Positions 22,545-63,882 of a DNA stretch of 64,000 bases are shown piece after piece (position 1 is the stretch's first letter; every line of letters begins with the position of its first letter). The DNA comes from Eubacteriales bacterium. Its GTDB lineage: Bacteria > Bacillota > Clostridia > Lachnospirales > Lachnospiraceae. The stretch lies in contig JAUNAF010000003.1 of assembly GCA_030527715.1 (NCBI GenBank), positions 1,641-65,640 on the forward strand, given 5' to 3'. The position numbers were made by a program, and so were the translations under genes. The notes beneath the pieces were generated by a model, which ran no database searches, was not told where the DNA came from, and saw nothing but the letters and a program-made list of their open reading frames with translations.

Positions 22545-23777
22545 ATGAAGAAAGAGAAGAAAAAACTGTCCCTGGCAGTCCAGATCTTTATTGCCCTGGT
22601 TGCCGCAATTATTGTGGGATTGCTGATGGTCAATCATTCCGACTTTGCAACCTCATACATTAAACCGTTTGGTACGATTTTCCTGAATCTTGTAAAATTC
22701 ATCGTTGTACCGATCGTGCTGTTCTCCATCATGAGCGGTATCATCTCCATGAGAGATATCAAAAAGGTCGGATCCATCGGTTTAAAGACCGTTGTTTTCT
22801 ATCTGTGTACCACAGCGTTCGCAATCATTATCGGTCTTGCGGGCGGTAATGTATTCAAGGGACTTTTCCCGGTAGTTGCCACAACAGACCTTACCTATGA
22901 GGCAGCGGAAGCAGTTCCGTTTATGGATACCATCGTCAATATTTTCCCGTCAAACTTTATCTCACCGATGGTAAATGCCAACATGCTGCAGATCATTGTG
23001 ATGGCACTGCTGTTCGGATTCTCCATTATTCTGATCGGAGAGCGCAACCAGAGGATCATTGACGGAGTAAATACACTGAATGATGTCTTCATGAAGTGTA
23101 TGGAGATGATCCTGAAGCTTTCCCCGATCGGTGTATTCTGCCTGCTCTGTCCGGTCATCGCAGAGAACGGTGCAAAGATCATCGGATCTCTGGCTATGGT
23201 ACTTCTGGCAGCATACATCTGTTACTTTGTACATGCAGTGATCGTATACTCACTGAGTGCCAAGGTTCTTGGCGGAGTAAGTGCAGTCACCTTCTTTAAG
23301 GAGATGATGCCGGCGATCATGTTTGCATTCTCCAGCGCATCCTCTGTCGGTACACTGCCGATCAATATGGAATGTACGGAAAAGCTCGGAGTAGACCGTG
23401 AGATCTCCTCCTTCGTACTGCCGCTCGGAGCAACCATCAATATGGACGGAACTGCGATCTATCAGGGTGTCTGTGCGATCTTCATCGCATCCTGCTTCGG
23501 CATTGAGCTGACCCTGCCGCAGATGGTCACCATCGTACTTACTGCGACTCTGGCATCTATCGGAACCGCAGGTGTACCGGGTGCCGGCATGGTAATGCTT
23601 GCCATGGTGCTGACCTCTGTAGGTCTTCCGGTAGAGGGTATCGCACTGGTGGCAGGTGTGGACCGTATCTTTGATATGGGACGTACCACAGTAAATATCA
23701 CAGGTGATGCCTGCTGTTCCGTTGTTGTCAGCAACCTCGAAAGAAAAAAAGAGGCAAGAAAGGGAAGTCAGAAATGA
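22545..23777 (+). CDS. Dicarboxylate/amino acid:cation symporter (DAACS family)
   Basis: Start at the ATG at 22545, after GGAGGA. 410-aa polytopic protein with SSASSVGTLP and GATINMDGTA motifs typical of GltP/SstT-like carriers. Confidence 0.88.
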   Translation: MKKEKKKLSLAVQIFIALVAAIIVGLLMVNHSDFATSYIKPFGTIFLNLVKFIVVPIVLFSIMSGIISMRDIKKVGSIGLKTVVFYLCTTAFAIIIGLAGGNVFKGLFPVVATTDLTYEAAEAVPFMDTIVNIFPSNFISPMVNANMLQIIVMALLFGFSIILIGERNQRIIDGVNTLNDVFMKCMEMILKLSPIGVFCLLCPVIAENGAKIIGSLAMVLLAAYICYFVHAVIVYSLSAKVLGGVSAVTFFKEMMPAIMFAFSSASSVGTLPINMECTEKLGVDREISSFVLPLGATINMDGTAIYQGVCAIFIASCFGIELTLPQMVTIVLTATLASIGTAGVPGAGMVMLAMVLTSVGLPVEGIALVAGVDRIFDMGRTTVNITGDACCSVVVSNLERKKEARKGSQK

Positions 23778-25306
23778 TTACAATAAAAGCTTATCGCGGA
23801 CATATCCGCAACTGGGAGGCGCTCTGTGCAGAGCTCTCCGTCGATCCGTCACTCTCCAGAGAGGAGCGTGAGGCAGAAATTCTGGTGAAGGCCTATCAGA
23901 CCTGGGGACATGAGATGGCAGACCATATGCACGGCATGTTTGCCTTCGCCCTCTATGATGAGGAGAAGGAGGAGCTGTTCTGCCTCCGTGACCAGTTCGG
24001 TACAAAACCGTTCTATTACTATGAGACCGAGGATCACCGCCTGCTCTTCGGCACGATGATCCGTGATATTCTGGAGCAGCCGGGATTTGATAAGGAACTG
24101 AATGAGAAAATGCTGCAGCTCTACCTGAGCCTGACCTATGTGGCAGGTGAGGAGACCTTCTTTGCAGGATTAAAGAAACTGCTTCCGGGACATTATCTGG
24201 TATTCAAAGACGGCAAGCTTGAGATCACCAGATACTGGACACCGCAGTTTGCTCCGCAGGAGGACAGATCCCTGGAGGACTGGGCAGAGGAGATCCACAG
24301 CACACTCAAGAGTATTATGCCGGAGGTGCTGGCAGCAGATGAGACTGCAGAATCCTTCCTGTCCGGCGGTGTGGATTCTTCCTATGTGCTTGCCATGTCC
24401 AATGTGAAGGCAGTAGACACCTGCGGTTATGAGGAGCCGAGATTCGATGAGTCCGGACTGGCTGCAGAGACTGCAAAACTGCTGGAAAGAGACTGCAACC
24501 GCTGCCTGATCACCCCGGAGCAGTATTTTGAGATCGTTCCGTGGGTTATGAAAAACATGGAGCAGCCGCTGGGAGATGCATCGGCTATCGCCTTCGCGAT
24601 CGCCTGCAGAGCTACCGCAGAGCACACGAAGATCTGCTACTCCGGTGAGGGAGCAGATGAGTTCTTCGGCGGTTACAATATGTACCGCAATGCGGAGCGC
24701 TACGGTGAGAATCTGAAGACCTTCTATGTGGGCAACACCAACATCATGAAGGAAGATGAGAAGCAGAGAATCCTGAAGAACTATGATGAGAAGGTTCTGC
24801 CGATCGGCCTGGTAAAGGATCTTTACGAGGAGATGGAGGGACTCGATCCACTTACCAAGATGTCAAATGTGGATATTCAGATCTGGCTGGAGGGAGATAT
24901 CTATCTGAATGTGGATAAGATGAGCACCGCAGCAGGACTGGAGATCCGTATGCCGCTGACTGACCGCAGAATCTTTGACATTGCCTCCCGCATGCCGTCC
25001 AGATTCAAGGTAAATGAGGAGCAGAACAAGGTCGCACTGCGTACCGCAGCAGCAAAGGTACTGCCGGAGGAGATCGCTTTCCGCAAAAAGCTCGGCTTTA
25101 TCGTGCCGATCCGTATCTGGATGGCGGACGACCGTTACAATCAGGATGTCAGAGCAAAATTCGCAGGTGAGACTGCAGAGAAGTTCTTTAACAAAGAAGA
25201 GATTCAGGCGATCTTTGACGAGTATGTCGGAGGCAATTCCGATAACTGGAGAAAGGTATGGACGATCTACACCTTCCTGGTTTGGTATGAGGAATACTTC
25301 AATTAA
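23774..25306 (+). CDS. Asparagine synthase (AsnB) homologue lacking the N-terminal glutaminase nucleophile
   Basis: 510 aa with an intact synthetase PP-loop (FLSGGVDSSYV). The N-terminus begins MITIKAYRGHIRNW.., which aligns to about residue 55-60 of canonical MCG.. AsnB enzymes. An in-frame stop lies at 23705-23707. ATGA overlap with the symporter gene. Confidence 0.75.
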   Translation: MITIKAYRGHIRNWEALCAELSVDPSLSREEREAEILVKAYQTWGHEMADHMHGMFAFALYDEEKEELFCLRDQFGTKPFYYYETEDHRLLFGTMIRDILEQPGFDKELNEKMLQLYLSLTYVAGEETFFAGLKKLLPGHYLVFKDGKLEITRYWTPQFAPQEDRSLEDWAEEIHSTLKSIMPEVLAADETAESFLSGGVDSSYVLAMSNVKAVDTCGYEEPRFDESGLAAETAKLLERDCNRCLITPEQYFEIVPWVMKNMEQPLGDASAIAFAIACRATAEHTKICYSGEGADEFFGGYNMYRNAERYGENLKTFYVGNTNIMKEDEKQRILKNYDEKVLPIGLVKDLYEEMEGLDPLTKMSNVDIQIWLEGDIYLNVDKMSTAAGLEIRMPLTDRRIFDIASRMPSRFKVNEEQNKVALRTAAAKVLPEEIAFRKKLGFIVPIRIWMADDRYNQDVRAKFAGETAEKFFNKEEIQAIFDEYVGGNSDNWRKVWTIYTFLVWYEEYFN

Positions 25307-25591: not shown

Positions 25592-26209
25592 ATGGGAGAG
25601 GTACTGGTTATCGGAATCGCCGGAGGAAGCGGCAGCGGAAAGACAACACTGACCAATCAGATCGCTGCATCTCTGAAAGAGAACGTGACAGTGGTAAAGC
25701 ACGACAACTATTACAAGGCACACGATGATATGACCTACGAGGAGCGCGTGACGCTTAACTATGATCATCCGAATGCATTTGACACGGATCTTCTGATCGA
25801 GCATCTCGCAAAGCTGCGCCGCGGCGAGAGCGTCGAGTGTCCGGTGTATGATTTTAAGATCCACAACCGAAGCAAGGATACGATCACGATCGTGCCGGGC
25901 CGCGTAGTGATCGTGGAGGGAATTCTGATCTTTGAAAATCCGAAGCTGTGTGAAATGATGGATATCCGCATCTTTGTGGACTGCGATGCGGACCTGCGCA
26001 TCATCCGCAGAATTCAGAGAGATGTTATGGAGAGAGCCAGAAGTCTGGATTCTGTAATTTCACAGTATCTGAATACGGTAAAGCCGATGCATGAGCAGTT
26101 TGTGGAGCCGAGCAAGAAGAATGCAAACATTATCGTGCCGGAAGGCGGGTATAATCAGGTCGCAATGGAGATGATCCGCAGCCATATCCAGAAATATATG
26201 GAAGACTGA
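25592..26209 (+). CDS. udk: Uridine kinase
   Basis: 205 aa with P-loop GIAGGSGSGKTT and overall Udk-like sequence (DNYYK, NYDHPNAFD). Confidence 0.95.
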   Translation: MGEVLVIGIAGGSGSGKTTLTNQIAASLKENVTVVKHDNYYKAHDDMTYEERVTLNYDHPNAFDTDLLIEHLAKLRRGESVECPVYDFKIHNRSKDTITIVPGRVVIVEGILIFENPKLCEMMDIRIFVDCDADLRIIRRIQRDVMERARSLDSVISQYLNTVKPMHEQFVEPSKKNANIIVPEGGYNQVAMEMIRSHIQKYMED

Positions 26210-26309
26210 TAAAAAAATTATAAACAAAGTCTTTATCTTTAGTTCAAAATTTGTTAGAATATGGAGAACACAATTATAAGCCATAGTATGGCACATAGGA
26301 GGAATTCAC

Positions 26310-27332
26310 ATGAATAAGAAAGTACTTGTAAGTGCAGCAGCAGTTGCAGCTATGTCTGTAGCAGCAATCGGCGCTACCGTATCCGCAGATGAGGTTAAGG
26401 TTGGTATCGTTACTGATGTCGGCGGCGTAAACGACGGTTCTTTCAACCAGTCCGCTTGGGAAGGTCTTCAGAGAGCACAGGAAGAGCTTGGTATCACAGC
26501 AAGCTATCTTGAGTCTGCTACAGATGCTGACTATATCCCGAACATCGAGACCTTCGTTGACGAAGACTACGATATGATCATCTGCATCGGCTATCAGCTG
26601 GCAGACGCTCTGCGTTCAGAGGCTGAGGCAAATCCGGATGTGAAGTTCGCAATCGTTGATGATGCAACCAACGCAGATATGGAAAATGTTACCTGCCTTA
26701 TGTTCGAGCAGGCTCAGGCTTCCTACCTTGCAGGTTATACAGCCGGTCTGACCACTGAGAGCAACACGATAGGATTCGTACTTGGTATGGTTACCGATAC
26801 CATGAACGAGTTTGGTTACGGTTACTGTGCAGGTGCTCTGGATGCTAATCCGGACGTAACGGTTCTTCAGGCAAATGCAAACAGCTTTGCTGATACCGCA
26901 GCAGGTAAGACTGCAGCAAATAACATGATCGCTGACGGCGCAGACGTTATCTTCCACGCAGCAGGCGGCACAGGTCTTGGTGTGATCGATGCTTGTAAGG
27001 AAGCTGGTATCTGGGCAATCGGTGTTGACTCTGACCAGAGCTCCATCGCTCCGGCAACCATCCTTACTTCTGCTATGAAGCGTGTAGACAACGCTGTTTA
27101 CGAGATCGCTCAGGCAACTGTAGAGGGAACTGTTGAGGCTGGTGTTAAGACCTTCTCTCTTGTAGATGCAGGTGTGGACATCGCTCCGACCACAGACAAC
27201 CTCTCTGAGGAGGTTCTGGCTACCATCAACGAAGTAAAAGAGAAGATCATCGCTGGCGAGATCGAAGTTCCGAAGAACAAAGAGACCTTCGAGGCAGCTC
27301 ACGGCGAGGGCATCTATCAGCTTGCTGAGTAA
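26310..27332 (+). CDS. BMP-family (PnrA/NupN-like) nucleoside ABC transporter substrate-binding protein
   Basis: 340 aa with VGIVTDVGGVNDGSFNQSAWEGL, typical of the basic membrane protein family. The signal peptide has no lipobox Cys. Confidence 0.9.
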   Translation: MNKKVLVSAAAVAAMSVAAIGATVSADEVKVGIVTDVGGVNDGSFNQSAWEGLQRAQEELGITASYLESATDADYIPNIETFVDEDYDMIICIGYQLADALRSEAEANPDVKFAIVDDATNADMENVTCLMFEQAQASYLAGYTAGLTTESNTIGFVLGMVTDTMNEFGYGYCAGALDANPDVTVLQANANSFADTAAGKTAANNMIADGADVIFHAAGGTGLGVIDACKEAGIWAIGVDSDQSSIAPATILTSAMKRVDNAVYEIAQATVEGTVEAGVKTFSLVDAGVDIAPTTDNLSEEVLATINEVKEKIIAGEIEVPKNKETFEAAHGEGIYQLAE

Positions 27333-27359
27333 TCAGCTCGAATGAAGGATCACTCTATC

Positions 27360-27388
27360 GGGCAGAGCGCAATGCTCTGCCCGTTTTC
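27360..27388 (+). terminator. Intra-operon hairpin/attenuator after the binding-protein gene
   Basis: GGGCAGAGC-gcaat-GCTCTGCCC followed by GTTTTC. Confidence 0.6.
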
Positions 27389-27473
27389 TGCAGAGAGGAG
27401 TCTGAAGCTTTGCGGTTGCAGATTGTTTTGTACAGAAAACAGCTTGGTAACAGATAGAAAAACAGGAGGAATT

Positions 27474-29018
27474 ATGAGAGATATTTCAATGGAACGCGTG
27501 AACGCGACAAGACAGGAGATCCTGGATACCGTGAAGTGCGCTTCTCTGACTCATGAGCAGAAGGTTGCCGCACTGGCAAACAAGGCGATCTCCATGATGG
27601 AAGTGCTGGATGTTCCGGCAGGACTGGATGAACTGATGCATCAGCCGATAGAGACAAAGTGCATTTGTGATCTGGTCGAAGGCAATGCACCGCTGCGTCC
27701 GCGCTATATTATTCCGGACTATGCAAAATTTATGAAGGAAGGCAGTGAATTTTTACAGCTGGATCCGCCGAAGGATCTGTTTGAGGCGCTGAACTCTCTG
27801 CTGATCTTCTACAAGCATGTACCGAGTGTAACCAATTTCCCGGTATATGTCGGTGCACTGGATGAGCTGCTGGAGCCGTTCATCGATGATGTGGATGAGG
27901 AGACTGCAAAGAAGCTGTTAAAGCTGTTCATGATCCATATGGACCGCACGATCCTGGACTCCTTCTCACATGCAAATGTCGGACCGAAGGCAACCAAGGC
28001 AGGCAGACTGCTGCTGGAGGTCGAGGGAGAGCTGGAGCATGCAGTTCCGAACCTCACAATGAAATATGATGAGAATATCACACCGGATGATTTTGCACTT
28101 GCCGGAGTGAGAGCAGCACTGAAGAGTGCAAAGCCGAGCTTTGCAAACCACGCAATGTTCCGTGAAGAGCTGACAGACGGCTACGTGATCGCCAGCTGCT
28201 ATAACGGACTGCGTCTGGGCGGAGGTTCCTACACCCTCTGCCGTATGATTCTCGGAAATATCGCAAAGCGTTCAGAGAATCTGAAGGATTTCCAGGAAAA
28301 TCAGCTGCCGTATGTCATGGAGACCATGGCTGCCTACATGGATGAGCGTATCCGCTTTGAAGTGGAGGAGAGCGGCTTCTTTGAGAATAACTTCCTTGCA
28401 AAGGAAGGATTCATTCGCAGAGACCTGTTTACCGCAATGTTCGGTATGGTCGGTCTGGCAGAGTGTGTCAACATTCTGATGGAGAAGGAAGGAAAGACCG
28501 GCCGCTTCGGTCACAGCGAGGAGGCAGATGCCCTCGGAGTGACGATCATGGAGCAGATCGATGCTTTCAATCAGGTGCATGTGAATCCGTACTGCGAGGC
28601 AACAGGAGGACACTTCCTGCTGCATGCACAGGTTGGTATCTCAGAAGATATCGACATTACCCCGGGTACCCGTATTCCGATCGGAGAGGAGCCGGAGGAG
28701 CTGATCGATCATCTGAAGAACTGTGCAAAGTATCACAGATACTTCCCGTCAGGAACAGGAGATATCTTCCCGATCGATGTCACCGTACATCGCAATCCGG
28801 AGTTTGTGCTGGATATCATCAAGGGTGCTTTCCGTGAGAAGCTGCGTTATCTGTCTTTCTATTCTTCAGACAGTGACGTTATCCGTATCACCGGATATCT
28901 GGTAAAACGCTCTGAGATCGAGAAGCTGGAAAAAGGACAGGCGGTACTTCAGGATACGACCGCACTCGGAATGGGAGCAAAGCAGAATGGAAAGATCTTG
29001 CAGAGAAAAGTACGTTAA
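27474..29018 (+). CDS. yjjI: YjjI-family glycyl radical enzyme (substrate unknown)
   Basis: Start at the ATG at 27474, after AGGAGGAATT. 514 aa, similar to the roughly 516 aa recalled for E. coli YjjI. C-terminal glycyl-radical-type motif VIRITGYLVKR (Gly codon 28893-28895). A dedicated activase gene follows. Confidence 0.75.
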   Translation: MRDISMERVNATRQEILDTVKCASLTHEQKVAALANKAISMMEVLDVPAGLDELMHQPIETKCICDLVEGNAPLRPRYIIPDYAKFMKEGSEFLQLDPPKDLFEALNSLLIFYKHVPSVTNFPVYVGALDELLEPFIDDVDEETAKKLLKLFMIHMDRTILDSFSHANVGPKATKAGRLLLEVEGELEHAVPNLTMKYDENITPDDFALAGVRAALKSAKPSFANHAMFREELTDGYVIASCYNGLRLGGGSYTLCRMILGNIAKRSENLKDFQENQLPYVMETMAAYMDERIRFEVEESGFFENNFLAKEGFIRRDLFTAMFGMVGLAECVNILMEKEGKTGRFGHSEEADALGVTIMEQIDAFNQVHVNPYCEATGGHFLLHAQVGISEDIDITPGTRIPIGEEPEELIDHLKNCAKYHRYFPSGTGDIFPIDVTVHRNPEFVLDIIKGAFREKLRYLSFYSSDSDVIRITGYLVKRSEIEKLEKGQAVLQDTTALGMGAKQNGKILQRKVR

Positions 29019-29853
29019 GGCTCCTGTCAATAAGATCATTCCGTTCAGTTCTGTAGATGGTCCGGGCAACCGCACCGCGGTATTTCTGCAGTCCTGCAAT
29101 TTCAACTGCAGATACTGTCACAATCCGGAGACCAGAAAACTTTGCATTCACTGCGGGGACTGTGTGAAGACCTGTCCTGCAGGCGCGCTTTCCATGAAAG
29201 AGGGCAGAGTCCTGTTTGATCCGGAAAAGTGCTGTTCCTGCGATACCTGCATTAAAACCTGCACCCATGATGCAAGTCCGAAAATCCTGTATCTGGATGC
29301 GGAAGAGGTCTTTGAGAGAGTCAGACGCCAGATGCCGTATATCCGAGGAGTTACGGTGTCCGGAGGAGAGTGTACGCTGCATCCGCAGTTTCTCAGAGAA
29401 TTCTTTGAGATCTGTCAGAAAAACGGGCTGAATACACTGCTGGACAGCAATGGAACGCTGGATCTTTCAGAGCAGGAAGAGCTGCTGAAGGTCACAGACG
29501 GTGTGATGCTTGACATCAAGGCCTGGGATGCCAGACAGCACCGCGAGGTGACAGACTGTTCCAATGAGATGGTATTGAAAAATGCCGTATTCCTCGCAGA
29601 GCGGGGAAAGCTTGCCGAGGTACGTACTGTGGTAGTACCGGAGCTTTTTGATGCGGAGCAGACAGTCCGAAGGACTGTGCAGCTGCTGGCACCATATCTG
29701 GTTGCCGGACAGATCCGTTACAAGATCATTAACTACCGCCCGATGGGCGTCCGAAAAGAATATGCCGTTTACCGGACTCCGACCGCAGAGGAAATGCAGC
29801 ATCTGAAGCGCATAGCGGAGGACGGAGGTTTTACCGACGTGATAATCGTTTAA
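28987..29853 (+). CDS. yjjW: YjjW-family glycyl radical enzyme activase (radical SAM)
   Basis: 288 aa with GPGNRTAVFLQSCNFNCRYCHNPE (Cx3Cx2C) and a ferredoxin-type CIHCGDCVKTCP cluster motif. Overlaps yjjI by 32 nt. Confidence 0.85.
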   Translation: MERSCREKYVKAPVNKIIPFSSVDGPGNRTAVFLQSCNFNCRYCHNPETRKLCIHCGDCVKTCPAGALSMKEGRVLFDPEKCCSCDTCIKTCTHDASPKILYLDAEEVFERVRRQMPYIRGVTVSGGECTLHPQFLREFFEICQKNGLNTLLDSNGTLDLSEQEELLKVTDGVMLDIKAWDARQHREVTDCSNEMVLKNAVFLAERGKLAEVRTVVVPELFDAEQTVRRTVQLLAPYLVAGQIRYKIINYRPMGVRKEYAVYRTPTAEEMQHLKRIAEDGGFTDVIIV

Positions 29854-29891: not shown

Positions 29892-31436
29892 GTGGCGAAG
29901 CAGAGCAGTGTAGATCTGAGTAAAACAGTGATTCGCATGAAGGATATCGTAAAGACCTTTGGCAGCTTCGTGGCAAATGACCACGTAAATCTCACCGTGC
30001 ACAAGGGAGAGGTACATGCGATTCTGGGAGAAAACGGTGCCGGAAAAAGTACACTGATGAATGTACTTTACGGTCTCTATCATCCGACATCCGGAACGAT
30101 CGAGATCGATGGAAAAGAGGTGCGGATCGACAGCCCGCAGAAGGCGATCGATCTGGGTATCGGTATGGTGCATCAGCACTTCATGCTGGTACAGCCGTTC
30201 ACGGTAACGGAGAATATTATTCTCGGAACCGAGCCGACGAAGGGAATCGTCGTAGATACGAAAAAAGCGAGAGAGAAGATCGTCGAGCTTTCCGACCGCT
30301 ACAATCTGAAGGTGGATCCGGATGCAAAGATCGAGGATATCTCTGTAGGAATGCAGCAGCGTGTAGAGATCCTGAAGGTGCTCTACCGTAATGCGGAATA
30401 TCTGATCCTGGATGAGCCGACAGCATCCCTGACACCGCAGGAGATCACGGAGCTGATCGATATCATTCACCATCTGACTGCTGACGGAAAATCTGTGATC
30501 CTGATCACCCACAAACTGAAGGAGATCAAGGCAGTTGCAGATTACTGTACGATCATTCGCCGCGGAAAATATATCAACACCGTGGATGTCAGCGAATGCG
30601 ATGAGAATAAGCTGGCAGCAATGATGGTTGGCCGTGATGTGGAATTCACGGTAGAGAAAAAGGAAATGACACCGGGAGAGGTAGTGCTGGATGTGAAGGA
30701 TCTTCACGCAAAGGACTATCGTAAGGTCGAGATCCTGAAAGGTCTGAATCTGAACGTGCGCCGCGGTGAGATCGTCGGTCTCGCAGGTGTGGACGGAAAC
30801 GGACAGTCTGAGCTGGTGGAGATCATTACCGGTCTGAAGAAGGCAGAGTCCGGAGAGATCACGATGAATGGTGAGAGTATCTTCAATCTGACACCGAAGG
30901 AGATCTTCGACAAGAGTGTGACCAGTATTCCGGAGGACCGTCAGAAACATGGTCTGGTACTGGACTTCTCTGTGGCAGAGAACCTGATCCTCCAGAATTT
31001 CTATAAGGAGCCGTATGCAAAGAGCGGTATCCTGCAGAATGCGGCCATCGAGGAGCATGCAGGAGAGATGATCGAGAAATTCGATATCCGTCCGGCAGAC
31101 AGCAGTCAGCGTCCGGCAGGCACGCTTTCCGGCGGTAATCAGCAGAAGGTCATCATCGCCCGTGAGGTGACCAATGATGCAGATCTTCTGATCGCCGTAA
31201 ACCCGACACGAGGTCTGGATGTAGGTGCGATCGAGTTCGTACATAAATACATTGTAGAGCAGAGAAATAAAAACAAGGCGATCCTGCTGGTATCCTTTGA
31301 GCTGGATGAGATCATGAACCTTTCTGACCGTATCGAGGTCATCTTCGACGGACAGATCGTGGGAAGTGTACCGGGCAAGGGTGCAGATGAGAAGGAACTT
31401 GGATTTATGATGGCGGGAGGTAAGAAGAATGAGTAA
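29892..31436 (+). CDS. Nucleoside/sugar ABC transporter ATP-binding protein (fused double ATPase, NupO-like)
   Basis: 514 aa with a GTG start after AAAGGAGGG. Walker A GENGAGKST, LSGGNQQK signature, and a second degenerate NBD. Confidence 0.93.
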   Translation: MAKQSSVDLSKTVIRMKDIVKTFGSFVANDHVNLTVHKGEVHAILGENGAGKSTLMNVLYGLYHPTSGTIEIDGKEVRIDSPQKAIDLGIGMVHQHFMLVQPFTVTENIILGTEPTKGIVVDTKKAREKIVELSDRYNLKVDPDAKIEDISVGMQQRVEILKVLYRNAEYLILDEPTASLTPQEITELIDIIHHLTADGKSVILITHKLKEIKAVADYCTIIRRGKYINTVDVSECDENKLAAMMVGRDVEFTVEKKEMTPGEVVLDVKDLHAKDYRKVEILKGLNLNVRRGEIVGLAGVDGNGQSELVEIITGLKKAESGEITMNGESIFNLTPKEIFDKSVTSIPEDRQKHGLVLDFSVAENLILQNFYKEPYAKSGILQNAAIEEHAGEMIEKFDIRPADSSQRPAGTLSGGNQQKVIIAREVTNDADLLIAVNPTRGLDVGAIEFVHKYIVEQRNKNKAILLVSFELDEIMNLSDRIEVIFDGQIVGSVPGKGADEKELGFMMAGGKKNE

Positions 31437-32505
31437 GAAAAAGATATGGAACAGTAATGCCATCTATACCTTTCTGGCCATTCTGGTTGGATTTGTAGTC
31501 GGCGCAGTGCTTCTGGCTGCGGCAGGAATCAACCCGCTGGTTGCCTACGGCAAGCTCTTTACCGGTGTATTCGGAAAGGTGAAATTTGTCACCTGGAGCA
31601 TTATCTATGCAGCACCGCTGATCCTGACAGGACTCAGCGTAGCCTTCTCTTTCAGAACAGGTGTATTTAACATCGGTGCAGAGGGACAGTTTGTGGTCGG
31701 CTCTCTGGCTGCCTGTGTGGTAGGTATCCTGGTGAAGGCACCGGCTCCGGTCCATGTGCTGCTCTGTGTCGCTGCAGCAATGGCAGCCGGCGCACTCTGG
31801 GGAGCCATCGTCGGAGTTTTAAAAGTAAAGCGCGGCGTAAACGAAGTGCTTTCCTACATTATGTTTAACTGGCTTGCATTCTATCTCTCCAACTTTGTGG
31901 TCAATCTGACAGTCATCCACAGAGAGGGAGGCGGAGAGGCTACGAAGGATGTGGCTGAGACCGCACGTATCATGGCACCGCAGGCACTGATCACAGCTAC
32001 CAGCTGTACTGCGGCAAACTGGGGTATCGTGATCGCCATTGTGGCTGCTGTCGCGATCTGGTTCATCATCAAAAAGACCACCCTCGGCTTCCAGCTGCGT
32101 GCAGTAGGATTCAGCCGCAGTGCTGCAGAGTATGCAGGTATCAACACAAATCGTATGTTCCTGACAGCTATGGCGATCTCAGGTGCCATGGCAGGACTGG
32201 GCGGAGCTGTTCAGACACTCGGTATGTCCGGACGTATCAGCCAGTTCAGCAGCCAGGAGGGCTTCGGATTCCAGGGAATCACGGTTGCCCTGATCGGTGC
32301 ATCTCATCCGATCGGCTGTATCTTTGCGGGTCTGTTCTACGGAGCTATGAAGTACGGCGGAGGCAAGCTCAGTCTGGTAAATGCACCGGCTGAGGTAGTA
32401 GATATCATCATGGGTACGATCATTATCTTCATCGCTGTATCCCATGTATTTAAGAAACTGATTCTTGGAAGAGCAGAAAAAAGTAAAGGAGGAAAACAGG
32501 CATGA
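31429..32505 (+). CDS. ABC transporter permease (BMP-system, NupP-like)
   Basis: 358-aa polytopic protein overlapping the ATPase gene by 8 nt. Confidence 0.9.
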   Translation: MSKKKIWNSNAIYTFLAILVGFVVGAVLLAAAGINPLVAYGKLFTGVFGKVKFVTWSIIYAAPLILTGLSVAFSFRTGVFNIGAEGQFVVGSLAACVVGILVKAPAPVHVLLCVAAAMAAGALWGAIVGVLKVKRGVNEVLSYIMFNWLAFYLSNFVVNLTVIHREGGGEATKDVAETARIMAPQALITATSCTAANWGIVIAIVAAVAIWFIIKKTTLGFQLRAVGFSRSAAEYAGINTNRMFLTAMAISGAMAGLGGAVQTLGMSGRISQFSSQEGFGFQGITVALIGASHPIGCIFAGLFYGAMKYGGGKLSLVNAPAEVVDIIMGTIIIFIAVSHVFKKLILGRAEKSKGGKQA

Positions 32506-33437
32506 GCGAACTGATTAAAGATCTTGGTCTTCTGATCAATGCAATGCTGATCGCAACACCGCCGCTGCTGTTTGCAGCACTTGGCTCCTGTTTTTCAGAG
32601 CGCAGCGGTGTGGTAAACATCGGTATTGAGGGAATGATGACGATCGGTGCTTTTACCGGTGCGGTCGTAGCATATTTTACAGGAAACGGCTGGCTTGGAT
32701 TCCTCTGTGGAGGTCTGGCAGGAGCAGCCTTCGGTGTGATTCACGCAATCGCCTGCATCTCCTTCAACGCAGATCAGACGATCTCCGGTACCGCGATCAA
32801 CTTCCTTGCGCCGGGACTTGCAGTCTTCCTGTGTAAGGCACTGTTTGACAACTCCTCAGATTCACCGGCGCTGGACACCGCAGCAAAGCTGCCGAAGATG
32901 TTCAACGGTGTGTTTAAGGCAGGATCCTTCGGTTACAATGTACTCAACACCTACCCGGTAGCTTATCTGTGCTTTGCACTGGTGCTTCTGGTATGGTTCA
33001 TTTTCTACAAGACCAGATTCGGTATGCGTCTGCGCGCGGTCGGTGAGCATCCGCAGGCATGTGCGACACTGGGTATCGATGTTTACCGTACACGTTACAT
33101 CTGTGTGATTGCTTCCGGTTTCCTCGCAGGACTGGGCGGAGCATATGTAACACTTTCCACAGTAAGCCAGTTCCGTCCGAGTGTTATCGTAGGACAGGGC
33201 TTTATCGCCATCGCAGCAGTTATCTTCGGAAACTTCAAGCCGCAGGGTGCCATGAAGGCCTGCCTGCTGTTCGGTTTCTGTAACGGAGTCAAGGCACTGC
33301 TCGGTGCAAACAATATCGTGTCTCCGCACCTGATCTCCATGATCCCGTATGTGGTGACCATCCTGGCACTCATCTTCTTCGTAGGAGGATCACGAGTACC
33401 GGCTGCAAACGGAAAACCGTTTGTGAAAGCGAAATAA
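32502..33437 (+). CDS. ABC transporter permease (BMP-system, NupQ-like)
   Basis: 311-aa polytopic protein with an ATGA overlap with the preceding permease gene. Confidence 0.9.
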   Translation: MSELIKDLGLLINAMLIATPPLLFAALGSCFSERSGVVNIGIEGMMTIGAFTGAVVAYFTGNGWLGFLCGGLAGAAFGVIHAIACISFNADQTISGTAINFLAPGLAVFLCKALFDNSSDSPALDTAAKLPKMFNGVFKAGSFGYNVLNTYPVAYLCFALVLLVWFIFYKTRFGMRLRAVGEHPQACATLGIDVYRTRYICVIASGFLAGLGGAYVTLSTVSQFRPSVIVGQGFIAIAAVIFGNFKPQGAMKACLLFGFCNGVKALLGANNIVSPHLISMIPYVVTILALIFFVGGSRVPAANGKPFVKAK

Positions 33438-33453
33438 GAACGACAGAATTGAT

Positions 33454-33517
33454 AATGCCGTCCCGATATCTTCAGACAGCCTGCGCAGGCTGGTGAGGAT
33501 GCCGGGGCGGCATTTTC
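33454..33517 (+). terminator. Compound hairpin terminator after the nucleoside ABC operon
   Basis: Outer stem AATGCCGTCCCG / CGGGGCGGCATT encloses the perfect inner hairpin CAGCCTG-cg-CAGGCTG and is followed by TTTTC. Confidence 0.6.
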
Positions 33518-33534
33518 AAAAAGGGGTGGAACAA

Positions 33535-34440
33535 ATGAAAAAACTCAGCTTAAACTATAACATCCTGTGCATTTGCATGATCACTCTTTCTGTCGCAGGA
33601 AGTCTGGTCATGCCTGTGCAGCGCGCAGAGGCTGCATCCGGGACCAAAGAGGAGGCAGTGTCCCCGGATGCGTGGGGTGACTATACTCCGGAAAAAGCAT
33701 GGTTCCGTGTCACAGGCACCGGAGAGCAGGGAACGGCTCTGCTGGTAAGACCGGAAGAGACTTCGGAAGAGCTGCTCAGAATACCGGAAGGCGAAGAGGT
33801 ATATGTGGAGGCACTGACCGACAGAAGATACGGCTATACGACATACAACGGGATCAGTGGCTGGATCAATACCGGACATACAAGGATCGTGACGACGAGA
33901 ACGGAAGAACAGGAAGTTTCGGAGCCTCGAAAAGAGGATGAGACAGACGAAGATCAGACAGAAAAATCAGAGATACATGTCTACGAATTCTGCTATACAC
34001 CGGATGATCAGAGCTGGTCGACCGCATTTCGGTGTGCAAAGGAAAATGGAGGATATCTTGCCCGAATCGACAGCGAAGCGGAATTTGAAGTGATCGTGAA
34101 TCAGATCAGCCAGATGCCGTGGACGCAGGAGATGGTCATGTTCCAGATCGGCGGACGCAGAGATGCAGACAGTGAAAAATTTTACTGGGTAGATGAGGAA
34201 AATCAGTGCTTTGGTCCAGCGATCAATGAGAGCGGATCATGGGCGGAACAGCACTGGCATGATGGAGAGCCTTCTCTTCAGAATACCAGAAAGTCAGACG
34301 GCAGTATCACGGAAGAATATCAGCTGGATCTCTATAATGTATCCGGAGTCTGGAAGCTGAACGATTCCACAGATGATATCGTCAGCTGGTATCCGGAATA
34401 CTCAGGAAAAGTGGGATATATCGTAGAATACGAAAAGTAA
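33535..34440 (+). CDS. Secreted protein with an SH3b-like domain and a C-type-lectin-like domain
   Basis: Start at the ATG at 33535. Signal peptide ..VQRAEA. SH3b-like GTALLVRPEETSEELLRIPEGEEVYVEALTDRRYGYTTYNGISGWI. CTLD-like WSTAFRCAKENGGYLARIDSEAEFEVIV..FQIGG..FYWVDE..WHDGEPS. Confidence 0.6.
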   Translation: MKKLSLNYNILCICMITLSVAGSLVMPVQRAEAASGTKEEAVSPDAWGDYTPEKAWFRVTGTGEQGTALLVRPEETSEELLRIPEGEEVYVEALTDRRYGYTTYNGISGWINTGHTRIVTTRTEEQEVSEPRKEDETDEDQTEKSEIHVYEFCYTPDDQSWSTAFRCAKENGGYLARIDSEAEFEVIVNQISQMPWTQEMVMFQIGGRRDADSEKFYWVDEENQCFGPAINESGSWAEQHWHDGEPSLQNTRKSDGSITEEYQLDLYNVSGVWKLNDSTDDIVSWYPEYSGKVGYIVEYEK

Positions 34441-56615: not shown

Positions 56616-56635
56616 AAGTTCCTGTGATATAATAA

Positions 56636-56812
56636 TTCGGCAACTGTTGTTTCACCTGATCAGGAAAACTGGGAAGCCGGTGCAAGTCCGGCACAGCTAC
56701 CTCTACTGTAAGCGGAGACGAGGGAACAAGAGCCACTGAAGGTATACTTTGGGAAGGCGTTCCTGAGGAAGAAACGCAAGTCAGGAGACCGACTGAGCAG
56801 GGAACATGATTT
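56636..56812 (+). promoter_or_regulatory. Cobalamin (B12) riboswitch
   Basis: Conserved core GGGAAGCCGGTGCAAGTCCGGCAC..ACTGTAAGCGG..GCCACTG..TGGGAAGGCG and B12 box AAGTCAGGAGACCGAC. Preceded by an extended -10, TGATATAAT (56625-56633). The downstream TTCCTC could pair with the RBS GAGGAG. Confidence 0.85.
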
Positions 56813-62400: not shown

Positions 62401-63882
62401 ATGATACTCGAAGCAAGAAATGTGAAAAAAAGATTTGGTCCGACGATTGCGCTTGACCGGGCGTATGTGCAGCTTCGTTCCGGTGAGGTCAATGCGCTGG
62501 TAGGTGAAAATGGAGCGGGAAAATCGACGATCCTGAAAGCAATTGCCGGAGTGCACCATATGGACGAAGGTGCAATCACCATTGATGGAAAAGAAATTGA
62601 GATCCACAGCATGAAAGATGCAGTGGCCAACGGAATCAGCATCGTATTCCAGGAGAGTACGATCAATCCGTATATTACGATCGCTGAAAATATTTTTATT
62701 GACAGATTGAGTGATTACAGAAAATTACTTCTGGGAATCGACTGGAAGAGACTGAACAGTGATGCTCAGAAAATTCTCGATTCCATGGAGTCTGGAATAG
62801 ACGTAAAGACAGATATCCGGGATCTGAATCTCGGACAGTGGAAGCTGATCGAGGTAGCGAGAGCTCTTTCCAATGATCCGCAGATTCTTCTGCTGGATGA
62901 ATCCACAGCTTTCCTGAATCATAATGAGACGATCAGTTTTATTTCCTCAGTAAAGAAACTGAGAGAGCGCGGGATGGCGATCGGATTTGTATCCCATCAT
63001 ATGCAGGAGGTCTATGATCTTGCAGACCGCATCACAGTCATGCGAGACGGCAAGTTTGTGATCGAGATGCTTCGAAATGAGGTGACACAGGAACGCCTGG
63101 AGTCAGCAATGGTAGGAAGAAGCATCGGAGAAAAGCTGTATCCTCCGAAGCGCGAGACCCCGGCGGAAGAGGTAGTGCTGAAGGTTGAAAATCTGAGCGT
63201 GGAAGGACAGCTGGAGCACGCAGACTTCGAACTGAGAAGAGGAGAGATCCTCGGCATCGGCGGACTGAAGCAGTCGGGCGGAGATGCGATCATCAATGCG
63301 ATCTATGGTGCGGTTCCGATCAGTGAGGGAAGTGTCACGATGGGTAAGGAGACCTACAGCTCCACCAGACCGACAGAGAGTCTTGATCGAAAGATCGCAC
63401 TGCTGCCGGGTGAGAGAACTCTGGAGGGACTGATCGTCAACTTCAGTATCGGTGATAATATCGTCATGTCTGCGGGACCGAGAAAGGGTGTTCTGCGTGA
63501 CAAGAAAAAAGAAAAAGAAATGATTGCGCAGTATGTGGATCAGGTGAGAATCAAGACGGACAATCCGAACAATCCTGCTTCCTCTCTGAGCGGTGGTAAT
63601 ATGCAGAAGGTGGTCATCGGAAAGTGTCTGGCAACAAACCCTGAGGTTCTGCTGCTGAACAACCCGACCCGAGGTATCGATATCAGTGCAAGACAGGAGA
63701 TCTACACACTGATTCGAGGGCTGGCGGATCAGGGACTTTCGATCATCATGCTGACAGAGGATCTGCTGGAGCTTCTTGGCATGAGTGACCGAATACTGAT
63801 TACACGTCATAACAAAATCAGCAAGCAGTTTGAGAAAAATGACGGTCTGACAGAAGAAGATGTGATCAGCTACATTGTATAG
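62401..63882 (+). CDS. Sugar ABC transporter ATP-binding protein (fused double ATPase, RbsA-like)
   Basis: 493 aa with Walker A GENGAGKST, LSGGNMQK and two NBDs. Confidence 0.93.
   Translation: MILEARNVKKRFGPTIALDRAYVQLRSGEVNALVGENGAGKSTILKAIAGVHHMDEGAITIDGKEIEIHSMKDAVANGISIVFQESTINPYITIAENIFIDRLSDYRKLLLGIDWKRLNSDAQKILDSMESGIDVKTDIRDLNLGQWKLIEVARALSNDPQILLLDESTAFLNHNETISFISSVKKLRERGMAIGFVSHHMQEVYDLADRITVMRDGKFVIEMLRNEVTQERLESAMVGRSIGEKLYPPKRETPAEEVVLKVENLSVEGQLEHADFELRRGEILGIGGLKQSGGDAIINAIYGAVPISEGSVTMGKETYSSTRPTESLDRKIALLPGERTLEGLIVNFSIGDNIVMSAGPRKGVLRDKKKEKEMIAQYVDQVRIKTDNPNNPASSLSGGNMQKVVIGKCLATNPEVLLLNNPTRGIDISARQEIYTLIRGLADQGLSIIMLTEDLLELLGMSDRILITRHNKISKQFEKNDGLTEEDVISYIV

Follow-up and report, generated by a model that had tools for sequence, protein, structure and literature searches.

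A YjjI-YjjW glycyl radical enzyme pair embedded in a predicted nucleoside ABC importer operon of Lachnospiraceae and its recurrent association with nucleoside genes

The canonical operons for ATP-binding cassette (ABC) importers of the BMP/PnrA family, known from Treponema pallidum (pnrA) and Bacillus subtilis (nupNOPQ), run directly from the gene of the substrate-binding protein to that of the ATPase. The operon analyzed here agrees with them in its four transporter components and in their order, but differs from the canonical arrangement in that two radical-enzyme genes stand in between. It lies in a 64,000-nucleotide stretch of DNA, hereafter the window (positions 1,641 to 65,640 of contig JAUNAF010000003.1, assembly GCA_030527715.1), from an Eubacteriales bacterium of the Lachnospiraceae, and the two genes encode a glycyl radical enzyme (GRE) of the YjjI family and a radical S-adenosylmethionine (SAM) activase of the YjjW family. 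About 60 relatives share this difference, whereas the uninterrupted canonical layout is found in L052, L064, L087, L091, and L163 among the loci that we compared.

YjjI is a GRE of Escherichia coli K-12 without an assigned reaction, and it is common in human-gut Lachnospiraceae as well as present in Haemophilus-like and enteric bacteria. The E. coli proteins YjjI (b4380) and YjjW (b4379) belong to the same families as the window pair, the two YjjI proteins being 42% identical. The gene pairs are alike in their overlap (29 nt in E. coli and 32 nt in the window), in their R-[IV]-T-G-Y and S-C-Y-N motifs, and in having nucleoside genes next to them. However, the E. coli pair is a separate unit without a Bmp transporter, in which yjjW-yjjI is divergent from the catabolic operon deoCABD, yjjI and deoC being 257 bp apart, whereas the window pair lies inside the importer operon. 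This E. coli layout had been given correctly in an earlier reading of the window (the original prediction). In the literature, including the GRE papers of 2024-2026, we found no paper that assigns a function to YjjI or reports its nucleoside context, and a June 2026 review of the GRE superfamily does not mention it; the only published prediction that we found concerns co-expression with nitrate-respiration genes (PMC3228777). An anaerobic role is supported by the direct activation of E. coli yjjI by FNR (PMC3688515) and by the 4.3-fold and 2.1-fold induction of yjjI and yjjW, respectively, in Yersinia intermedia without oxygen (PMC3792023).

A further described relative of the operon is 'transporter L' of Clostridium thermocellum (the Lbp operon, Clo1313_2342-2347), a six-gene unit whose binding protein (PDB 7X0R) is 67% identical to that of the window over 313 residues. 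A figure legend names 'hp' and 'rsam' among the genes of the five depicted C. thermocellum transporter clusters (PMC9601137). An RNA-seq study treated CLO1313_RS11885-11910 as the six-gene Lbp operon, its table giving the order lbp, 'hypothetical protein' (Clo1313_2343), ATPase, and two permeases, followed by a cytidine deaminase gene (PMC7471329). From the legend and the gene count, and not from sequence, we infer that 'hp' and 'rsam' are YjjI and YjjW; a homologue search for this operon seeded with a Thermoclostridium-labelled YjjI (L060) returned only Lachnospiraceae-type proteins. In an engineered C. thermocellum strain, growth on xylose compared with cellobiose raised expression across Clo1313_2342-2348: 2.0-fold for Lbp, 2.2-fold for the adjacent 'hypothetical protein', 2.7- to 3.0-fold for the ATPase and permeases, and 1.9-fold for the downstream cytidine deaminase (PMC7471329). 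The link to a pentose could hint at the inducer, or the rise could reflect stress.

The YjjI-YjjW pair and its importer operon

The two proteins of the window are members of the YjjI and YjjW families, their genes lie within the operon of a predicted nucleoside ABC importer, and relatives of the pair accompany nucleoside genes in several unrelated lineages. The pair is a new member of two catalogued, uncharacterized families. The yjjI gene (27474-29018, + strand) encodes a protein of 514 amino acids (aa) that matches TIGR04040 over the entire profile (positions 1-497 of 497) with 701 bits (cutoff 498.3), and PF11230 with 749 bits. Its 3' end is overlapped by 32 nt by the gene of a dedicated YjjW-type activase (28987-29853, + strand; 288 aa), which matches TIGR04041 with 370.8 bits (cutoff 250.2) as well as the Pfam domains Radical_SAM, Fer4_12, and Fer4_7. 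The activase carries CNFNCRYC (CX3CX2C) at residue 37, together with the Cys clusters CIHCGDCVKTCP and CCSCDTCIKTC in a ferredoxin-like insert.

The presumed glycyl radical site is Gly474 (codon GGA, 28893-28895, + strand) in the C-terminal motif VIRITGYLV, and the presumed thiyl-radical site is Cys242 in the loop S241-C242-Y243-N244 (codons of C242-Y243-N244 at 28197-28205, + strand). All full-length members of the family have a glycine aligned at this position, and both R-[IV]-[TS]-G-[YF] and SCYN are present in each of the 162 YjjI genes examined; C242 and N244 are invariant in 24 diverse members. The original prediction had placed both reading frames, their motifs, and their overlap correctly, and its family assignments and its expectation of a conserved radical Gly/Cys pair were confirmed by the profile scores and alignments given here. 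The YjjI family is compact: at E ≤ 0.001, only 534 cluster representatives (50% identity) were matched, of which about 22 are full-length. Its other invariant polar residues are, in window numbering, E69, R77, Y78, Y113, D130, D157, H166, N193, T203, R257, E311, H384, Q386, D392, and R400, a set with which a ligand bearing several hydroxyl groups, and possibly a phosphate, would be compatible.

No activase gene lies near 47 of the 162 YjjI genes (L101, L105, L106, L110-L122, L009, L011, L016, L022, and others), in all of which the Cys and Gly motifs are intact; these enzymes may depend on an activase gene located elsewhere or on a different activase. A 574-aa record from a 2.9-kb E. coli contig (P0124) contains both YjjI and DeoC Pfam domains, and this fusion is probably an artefact of assembly or gene calling, because yjjI and deoC are divergent in E. 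coli.

In the window, the pair is preceded by the gene of a Bmp/PnrA-family substrate-binding lipoprotein (26310-27332; PF02608, 264 bits) and followed by those of a fused two-domain ABC ATPase (29892-31436; PF00005 twice) and two BPD_transp_2 permeases (31429-32505 and 32502-33437; PF02653, 155 and 154 bits), both of which keep their positions in related loci. A uridine kinase gene (udk, 25592-26209; NF004018, 300 bits with a cutoff of 180; TIGR00235, 269 bits) lies directly 5' of the operon. All genes from udk through permease 2 are on the + strand, and this arrangement, as originally described, was borne out by the list of open reading frames (ORFs) and the family scans. The GC content is flat at about 0.50 over the whole cluster and thus gives no hint that any part of it was inserted recently. 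What did not stand is the description of the two genes as an orphan pair inserted at this site, as about 60 species-level genomes share Bmp-YjjI-YjjW-ATPase as their standard arrangement; a recent mobile insertion of yjjI-yjjW was rejected in view of the flat GC content and this conservation.

With regard to the imported ligand, the window binding protein matches T. pallidum PnrA (PDB 2FQW) with E = 9e-50 in addition to its similarity to Lbp, and its best NCBIfam matches ('putative B6 ABC') all fall below cutoff. The ligand density in the Lbp crystal was best fitted by guanosine, not laminaribiose, and a transporter-L mutant of C. thermocellum still grew on laminaribiose (PMC9601137). By homology to Lbp and PnrA, the ligand of the window importer may be a nucleoside.

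Nucleoside genes around yjjI in Lachnospiraceae and other lineages

A scan of one genome per species yielded, as its best 80 matches, loci in which YjjI is 72-88% identical to that of the window; a metagenome scan was likewise taken to its best 80 matches, and the sampling of both is uneven. Nearly all of the 80 species-level loci come from Lachnospiraceae or close relatives, and the labels Bacteroidaceae, Senegalimassilia, and Selenomonadales on some metagenome-assembled genomes are probably binning errors. Genes were called by a simple longest-ORF rule, and the window proteins and the E. coli Deo proteins were mapped onto the loci. The usual order, found in about 60 of the best 80, is Bmp-YjjI-YjjW-ATPase-permease-permease. 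Of 78 evaluable loci, 61 have the Bmp gene immediately 5' of yjjI; yjjW stands immediately 3' of yjjI in 60 of 74, and the ATPase gene directly after yjjW in 59. The median gaps at these three junctions are 147, 3, and 36 nt, respectively. The window ATPase has a median identity of 76% to the ATPase at the same position in 64 related loci. Outside this core, the loci are heavily rearranged, with at least 57 distinct gene orders.

When all neighboring ORFs of the 80 loci were clustered, most of the recurrent neighbors proved to be genes of nucleoside metabolism. Uridine phosphorylase (Udp) occurs in about 47-50 of the 80 loci, cytidine deaminase (Cdd) in 46, phosphopentomutase (DeoB) in 35, deoxyribose-phosphate aldolase (DeoC) in 32, adenosine deaminase (Add) in 27, DeoD in 16, and PunA and uridine kinase in nine each. 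Only three non-nucleoside neighbors recur, namely a Crp/Fnr-family regulator in 29 loci, a second gene resembling those of ABC ATPases in 17, and a gene for a YczE-like membrane protein in 10. The window is a reduced version of these loci, consisting of udk, the transporter, and yjjIW, and in most of its relatives the position of its udk is held by uridine phosphorylase. The Crp/Fnr-family regulator, which has a cNMP-binding domain and a Crp-type helix-turn-helix and often follows right after permease 2 (e.g., L040, 8972-9715), has no gene in the window.

Some of the rearranged loci separate the genes of the core from one another. L064 has the order Bmp-ATPase-permease-permease-YjjI-Udp-DeoB-YjjW-DeoD-DeoC, in which neighboring genes are tightly packed or overlap, and yjjI and yjjW themselves are split by udp and deoB. 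Two complete transporter gene sets flank the radical-enzyme genes in L069 and L073; in L069, yjjW lies between the Bmp and ATPase genes, while yjjI follows the other transporter copy and is succeeded by udp and deoB. This arrangement suggests a rearrangement between duplicated operons.

Other clades were sampled through contig look-ups and the metagenome scan, and 162 loci were grouped by single linkage at 62% identity into 14 clades. Nucleoside genes occur within six genes of yjjI in six of these clades, in 69 of 74, 7 of 39, 9 of 34, 2 of 3, 2 of 2, and 1 of 1 loci. In addition to the E. coli arrangement, Edwardsiella has deoCABD, yjjIW, and then a NupC-family nucleoside transporter, and Pasteurellaceae-like contigs, recognized by pgk, fba, and RNase T2 upstream and rplK, rplA, and rpoB downstream, have YjjI-YjjW-NupC-DeoD. 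One Pasteurellaceae-like subgroup carries recQ in place of yjjW-nupC-deoD. A termite-gut contig (L172) shows YjjI-YjjW-Cdd-DeoA-DeoC-DeoB-DeoD beside a divergent Bmp-ABC operon. In human-gut contigs (L161, L163, and L165), the order is either ribokinase-YjjI-YjjW followed by a pyrimidine nucleoside hydrolase-like gene or Bmp-ABC-hydrolase-...-LacI-type regulator-YjjI-YjjW-...-hydrolase, and the clade of L087 and L096 combines nucleoside hydrolases, PNP-family phosphorylases, YjjI-YjjW, a major facilitator superfamily (MFS) transporter, Bmp-ABC, and Cdd.

The nucleoside link is recurrent, independent of the Bmp transporter, and not universal. The neighborhood survey proposed in the original prediction gave a positive result, as nucleoside transporters and nucleoside-cleaving or pentose-processing enzymes recur by YjjI in at least six clades, in different gene orders and with different transporter families. 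Neither a mismatch to the YjjI family, nor the loss of the radical Gly/Cys pair, nor a lack of nucleoside genes around YjjI, any of which would have spoken against that prediction, appeared in the in silico analysis.

Fold, proposed reaction, and alternative explanations

In the broad sense, the function of YjjI is probably linked to nucleosides. The explanation that we put forward as the best, and that we slightly favor, is that YjjI-YjjW is a working, selected part of nucleoside-utilization loci and not a stray insertion. It is possible, if doubtful, that YjjI founds a third GRE lineage, apart from the anaerobic ribonucleotide reductases and the PFL-like enzymes, with reductase-like chemistry on free nucleosides or pentose phosphates, e.g., 2'-deoxygenation or dehydration.

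In the mechanism that we propose, YjjW would use SAM to install a radical on Gly474 of YjjI, from which it would pass to Cys242 on the S-C-Y-N loop. The hydrogen abstracted by the thiyl radical would come from the ribosyl moiety of an imported nucleoside, or else from ribose-1-phosphate or ribose-5-phosphate derived from it, and the C2'-O bond would be cleaved as in ribonucleotide reductases, in a redox-neutral or formate-driven manner. A deoxy or keto-deoxy derivative of the pentose would result, which could enter the DeoB/DeoC branch or nucleotide salvage. Such a reductase-like cleavage, with DeoB/DeoC as the consumers of its deoxy or keto-deoxy product, is our preferred sub-hypothesis, a tentative one that we consider rather unlikely. 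Chemistry directed at the sugar is favored because the base specificity of the partners varies, being pyrimidine-directed in most Firmicutes loci and purine-directed (DeoD) in Pasteurellaceae-like loci, whereas the sugar is constant and the fold is reductase-like. A simple formate-driven reduction is uncertain, since no second Cys is conserved.

The likeness to reductases comes from an AlphaFold model of the window YjjI, which was built on 52 sequences (pLDDT 90, pTM 0.90). Its top Foldseek matches are class III ribonucleotide reductases (9dau, 8p2s, 1h7b, and 4coj), with E values of about 1e-15 and TM-scores of 0.62-0.74 normalized to the query. The model predicts the features of the NrdD fold, namely a ten-stranded barrel, a Cys finger loop in mid-chain, and a Gly loop toward the C-terminus; the substrate of class III ribonucleotide reductases is a ribosyl compound. 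The two nevertheless differ in several respects. YjjI is about 200 residues shorter, a domain scan detected no ATP-cone domain in it, and there is no NrdD-type zinc-binding Cys cluster, as its last 100 residues lack any CxxC pair. An NCBIfam scan of the window YjjI also gave no NrdD match. The window activase is of the ferredoxin-insert type, whereas that of NrdD is NrdG. In an archaeal contig (L094, 11621-12364) and an actinobacterial genome (L090, 11557-12309), the gene after yjjI encodes an activase of about 250 aa without the ferredoxin insert, that of L094 being 31% identical to E. coli NrdG. The pairing of YjjI with these short activases would fit an evolutionary tie to the reductase lineage.

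Besides C242, C65 is the only Cys conserved in both large clades (the Lachnospiraceae-type and the enterobacterial). It was rejected as a family-wide counterpart of the second Cys of NrdD, since its place is taken by H, Y, or D in 7 of the 24 diverse sequences. Conservation at M322 holds in most of them.

The C-x-E loop motif that defines the PFL-like GRE eliminases and isomerases (PMC13450708) is not present in YjjI, whose family-invariant loop is C-Y-N. E. coli YbiW/PflD belong to that PFL-like family with its C-x-E loop, whereas YjjI, with a C-x-N loop, forms the separate Pfam family PF11230, and their fold-search scores against YjjI are slightly below those of the class III ribonucleotide reductases. 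YbiW/PflD were recently de-orphaned as C-O lyases/isomerases of anhydrohexitol 6-phosphates, which cut the C-O bond of a sugar phosphate before an aldolase completes the pathway (PMC13450708). By analogy, YjjI beside DeoC could follow the same logic.

Several observations weigh against a nucleoside-directed, reductase-like YjjI. Our literature search found no biochemical data for any member of the family. As for the context, the neighborhood link claimed in the original prediction holds in six clades and not in eight small ones, in none of which a nucleoside gene lies within six genes of yjjI. Most loci of these negative clades, among them those of Ferrimonas, an actinobacterium, and an archaeon, offer only an isolated YjjI-YjjW pair or a yjjI gene by itself; some have the housekeeping synteny YjjI-YjjW-ruvAB-queA-tgt, and the neighbors in L086 are an MFS transporter and a glycerophosphodiesterase. 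The window itself contains no deo genes (deoB and deoC included), no udp, and no cdd in all of its 64 kb, nor nrdD, and a terminator-like hairpin (27359-27383) separates the Bmp gene from yjjI. As for the chemistry, the invariant residues R77, R257, and R400 may indicate that the substrate is an anion and not a neutral nucleoside. A reduction of the reductase type would need a second Cys or a Cys/Met pair, and C65 varies across the family (C, H, Y, D); YjjI also lacks a Met two residues before C242, at which position the Cys loop of E. coli NrdD reads Met-x-Cys. As for the fold, other GREs follow closely in the search, with TM-scores of 0.58-0.64, and the similarity of YjjI to NrdD in sequence is negligible: PF13597 (NRDD) scores 20.6 bits, below its cutoff of 26.2, an hhalign comparison with E. 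coli NrdD gives a probability of 5.9% with an unreliable register of the Cys loop, and searches of the PDB sequences with phmmer and with the 52-sequence profile gave no matches.

All of the contextual evidence would apply equally if YjjI converted non-canonical nucleosides that resist phosphorylases and hydrolases, such as 2'-O-methyl, 5'-deoxy, or C-glycosidic forms from RNA turnover or radical-SAM by-products, to a form usable by the deo enzymes. The loci already encode complete canonical routes, so that an extra enzyme suggests an extra substrate, and amidohydrolases resembling 5'-deoxyadenosine/methylthioadenosine deaminases occur in L087 and L152. However, these matches lie far under the curated cutoffs, and no marker of a modified-nucleoside pathway (PsuG/PsuK, MtnA-type isomerases) was found in the examined neighborhoods. 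We regard this explanation as unlikely, albeit as the one that fares best among the alternatives.

It is improbable that YjjI acts on the released base (uracil or a purine) instead of the sugar, as an anaerobic radical step of base degradation. Pyrimidine-directed partners do dominate (Udp, Udk, Cdd, and the pyrimidine-preferring hydrolase-like genes), and they yield or process free pyrimidine bases or nucleosides. However, genes of base degradation (dihydropyrimidinase, beta-ureidopropionase, xanthine dehydrogenase) are absent from the examined YjjI neighborhoods, whereas the pentose-handling DeoB, DeoC, and ribokinase accompany YjjI. The nearest fold is that of an enzyme working on ribose, and the change from the purine-specific DeoD in Pasteurellaceae-like loci to pyrimidine-specific partners elsewhere leaves the sugar as the common element.

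The isolated YjjI-YjjW pairs and lone YjjI genes of the eight small clades, the context of L086, and the hairpin between the Bmp gene and yjjI in many loci would be expected if the pair rode in nucleoside operons for regulatory or historical reasons, e.g., shared anaerobic control, and acted on an unrelated metabolite. Against this stand the survival of the linkage through extensive rearrangement (57 gene orders), the three partner sets (Bmp-ABC; NupC and DeoD; ribokinase and hydrolases) in clades that are only 40-55% identical, and the splitting of yjjI and yjjW by udp and deoB in L064, so that we see only a slim chance for the absence of a functional link. Least probable of all is that YjjI is a stripped-down class III ribonucleotide reductase for salvage nucleotides (in the window, UMP or CMP from the adjacent uridine kinase), for despite the nearest folds, the faint Pfam NRDD match, Arg residues compatible with phosphate binding, and the NrdG-like activase of the archaeal YjjI, the NrdD sequence models failed, the ATP-cone/specificity-site domains, the C-terminal CxxC...CxxC zinc site, and a conserved second Cys are missing, the usual partners are catabolic (phosphorylases and DeoC) and not kinases, and E. 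coli has a separate nrdDG, of which it requires nrdD for strict anaerobic growth despite its yjjI.

If YjjI does found a third GRE lineage with reductase-like chemistry on free nucleosides or pentose phosphates, gut Firmicutes, enterobacteria, and Pasteurellaceae would have an undescribed anaerobic route by which the uptake of ribonucleosides feeds the DeoB/DeoC branch or the salvage of deoxynucleosides. Should the enzyme act in a reductase-like manner on a substrate that is not a nucleotide, this would be a new anaerobic reaction of nucleosides and would bear on the kinship of ribonucleotide reductases and GREs. From the context, the list of candidate substrates shortens to uridine, cytidine, and the purine ribonucleosides, the corresponding deoxy compounds, ribose-1-phosphate, and ribose-5-phosphate. 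Tractable organisms in this regard are E. coli, Haemophilus, and C. thermocellum, for which the transporter-L mutant exists.

Expression signals and other features of the window

The start of yjjI at 27474 is preceded by its own ribosome-binding site, AGGAGG, at 27464-27469. An alternative start (ATG at 27342) was rejected, as translation from it would read through the hairpin and the listed homologues are almost all 514 aa long. This hairpin, which the original prediction did not mention, lies directly 3' of the Bmp stop codon (27359-27383, + strand); the terminator scan reports an 11-bp stem with 8 GC pairs, the folding energy is about -22 kcal/mol, and the GC-rich stem is followed by TTTTCTG. 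A comparable hairpin is found 3' of the Bmp gene in most related loci with a Bmp-yjjI gap above about 80 nt, while about 12 related loci have a gap of 0-60 nt and no hairpin. Some of the gaps are only 0-30 nt, which argues for a single transcript. Attenuating or stabilizing hairpins commonly follow the binding-protein genes of ABC operons, and that of the window is probably a partial terminator or an mRNA-stabilizing element. It would set a high expression of the binding protein, with yjjI, yjjW, and the membrane components expressed by a lower level of read-through.

A candidate extended -10 promoter element, TGTTAGAAT, was read by eye 5' of the Bmp gene (26255-26260, + strand); it is a weak call by consensus only, with a poor -35 match, and the promoter scan has no entry for it. 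No Rfam match to a riboswitch or leader RNA lies near the window operon or in six complete related loci. The sole Rfam matches in the window, both far from the operon, are a cobalamin riboswitch (56627-56811, + strand; 91 bits) and RAGATH-18 (290-362, + strand; 61 bits).

Directly 3' of permease 2, where related loci usually have the Crp/Fnr-family regulator, cdd, or deoC, the window has a 315-aa ORF (33493-34440, + strand) with a hydrophobic N-terminus and no Pfam match. A second two-domain ABC ATPase, of the sugar type and 29% identical to that of the operon, is encoded near the end of the window (62404-63795, + strand). Upstream of udk, the gene of an asparagine-synthase-like protein (23774-25306, + strand) overlaps the stop codon of an SDF-family symporter gene (22545-23777). 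The protein aligns only from about profile position 73-75 and apparently lacks the N-terminal part of the glutaminase domain, and a 511-aa homologue of it is found in the closest relative (L002/L004).

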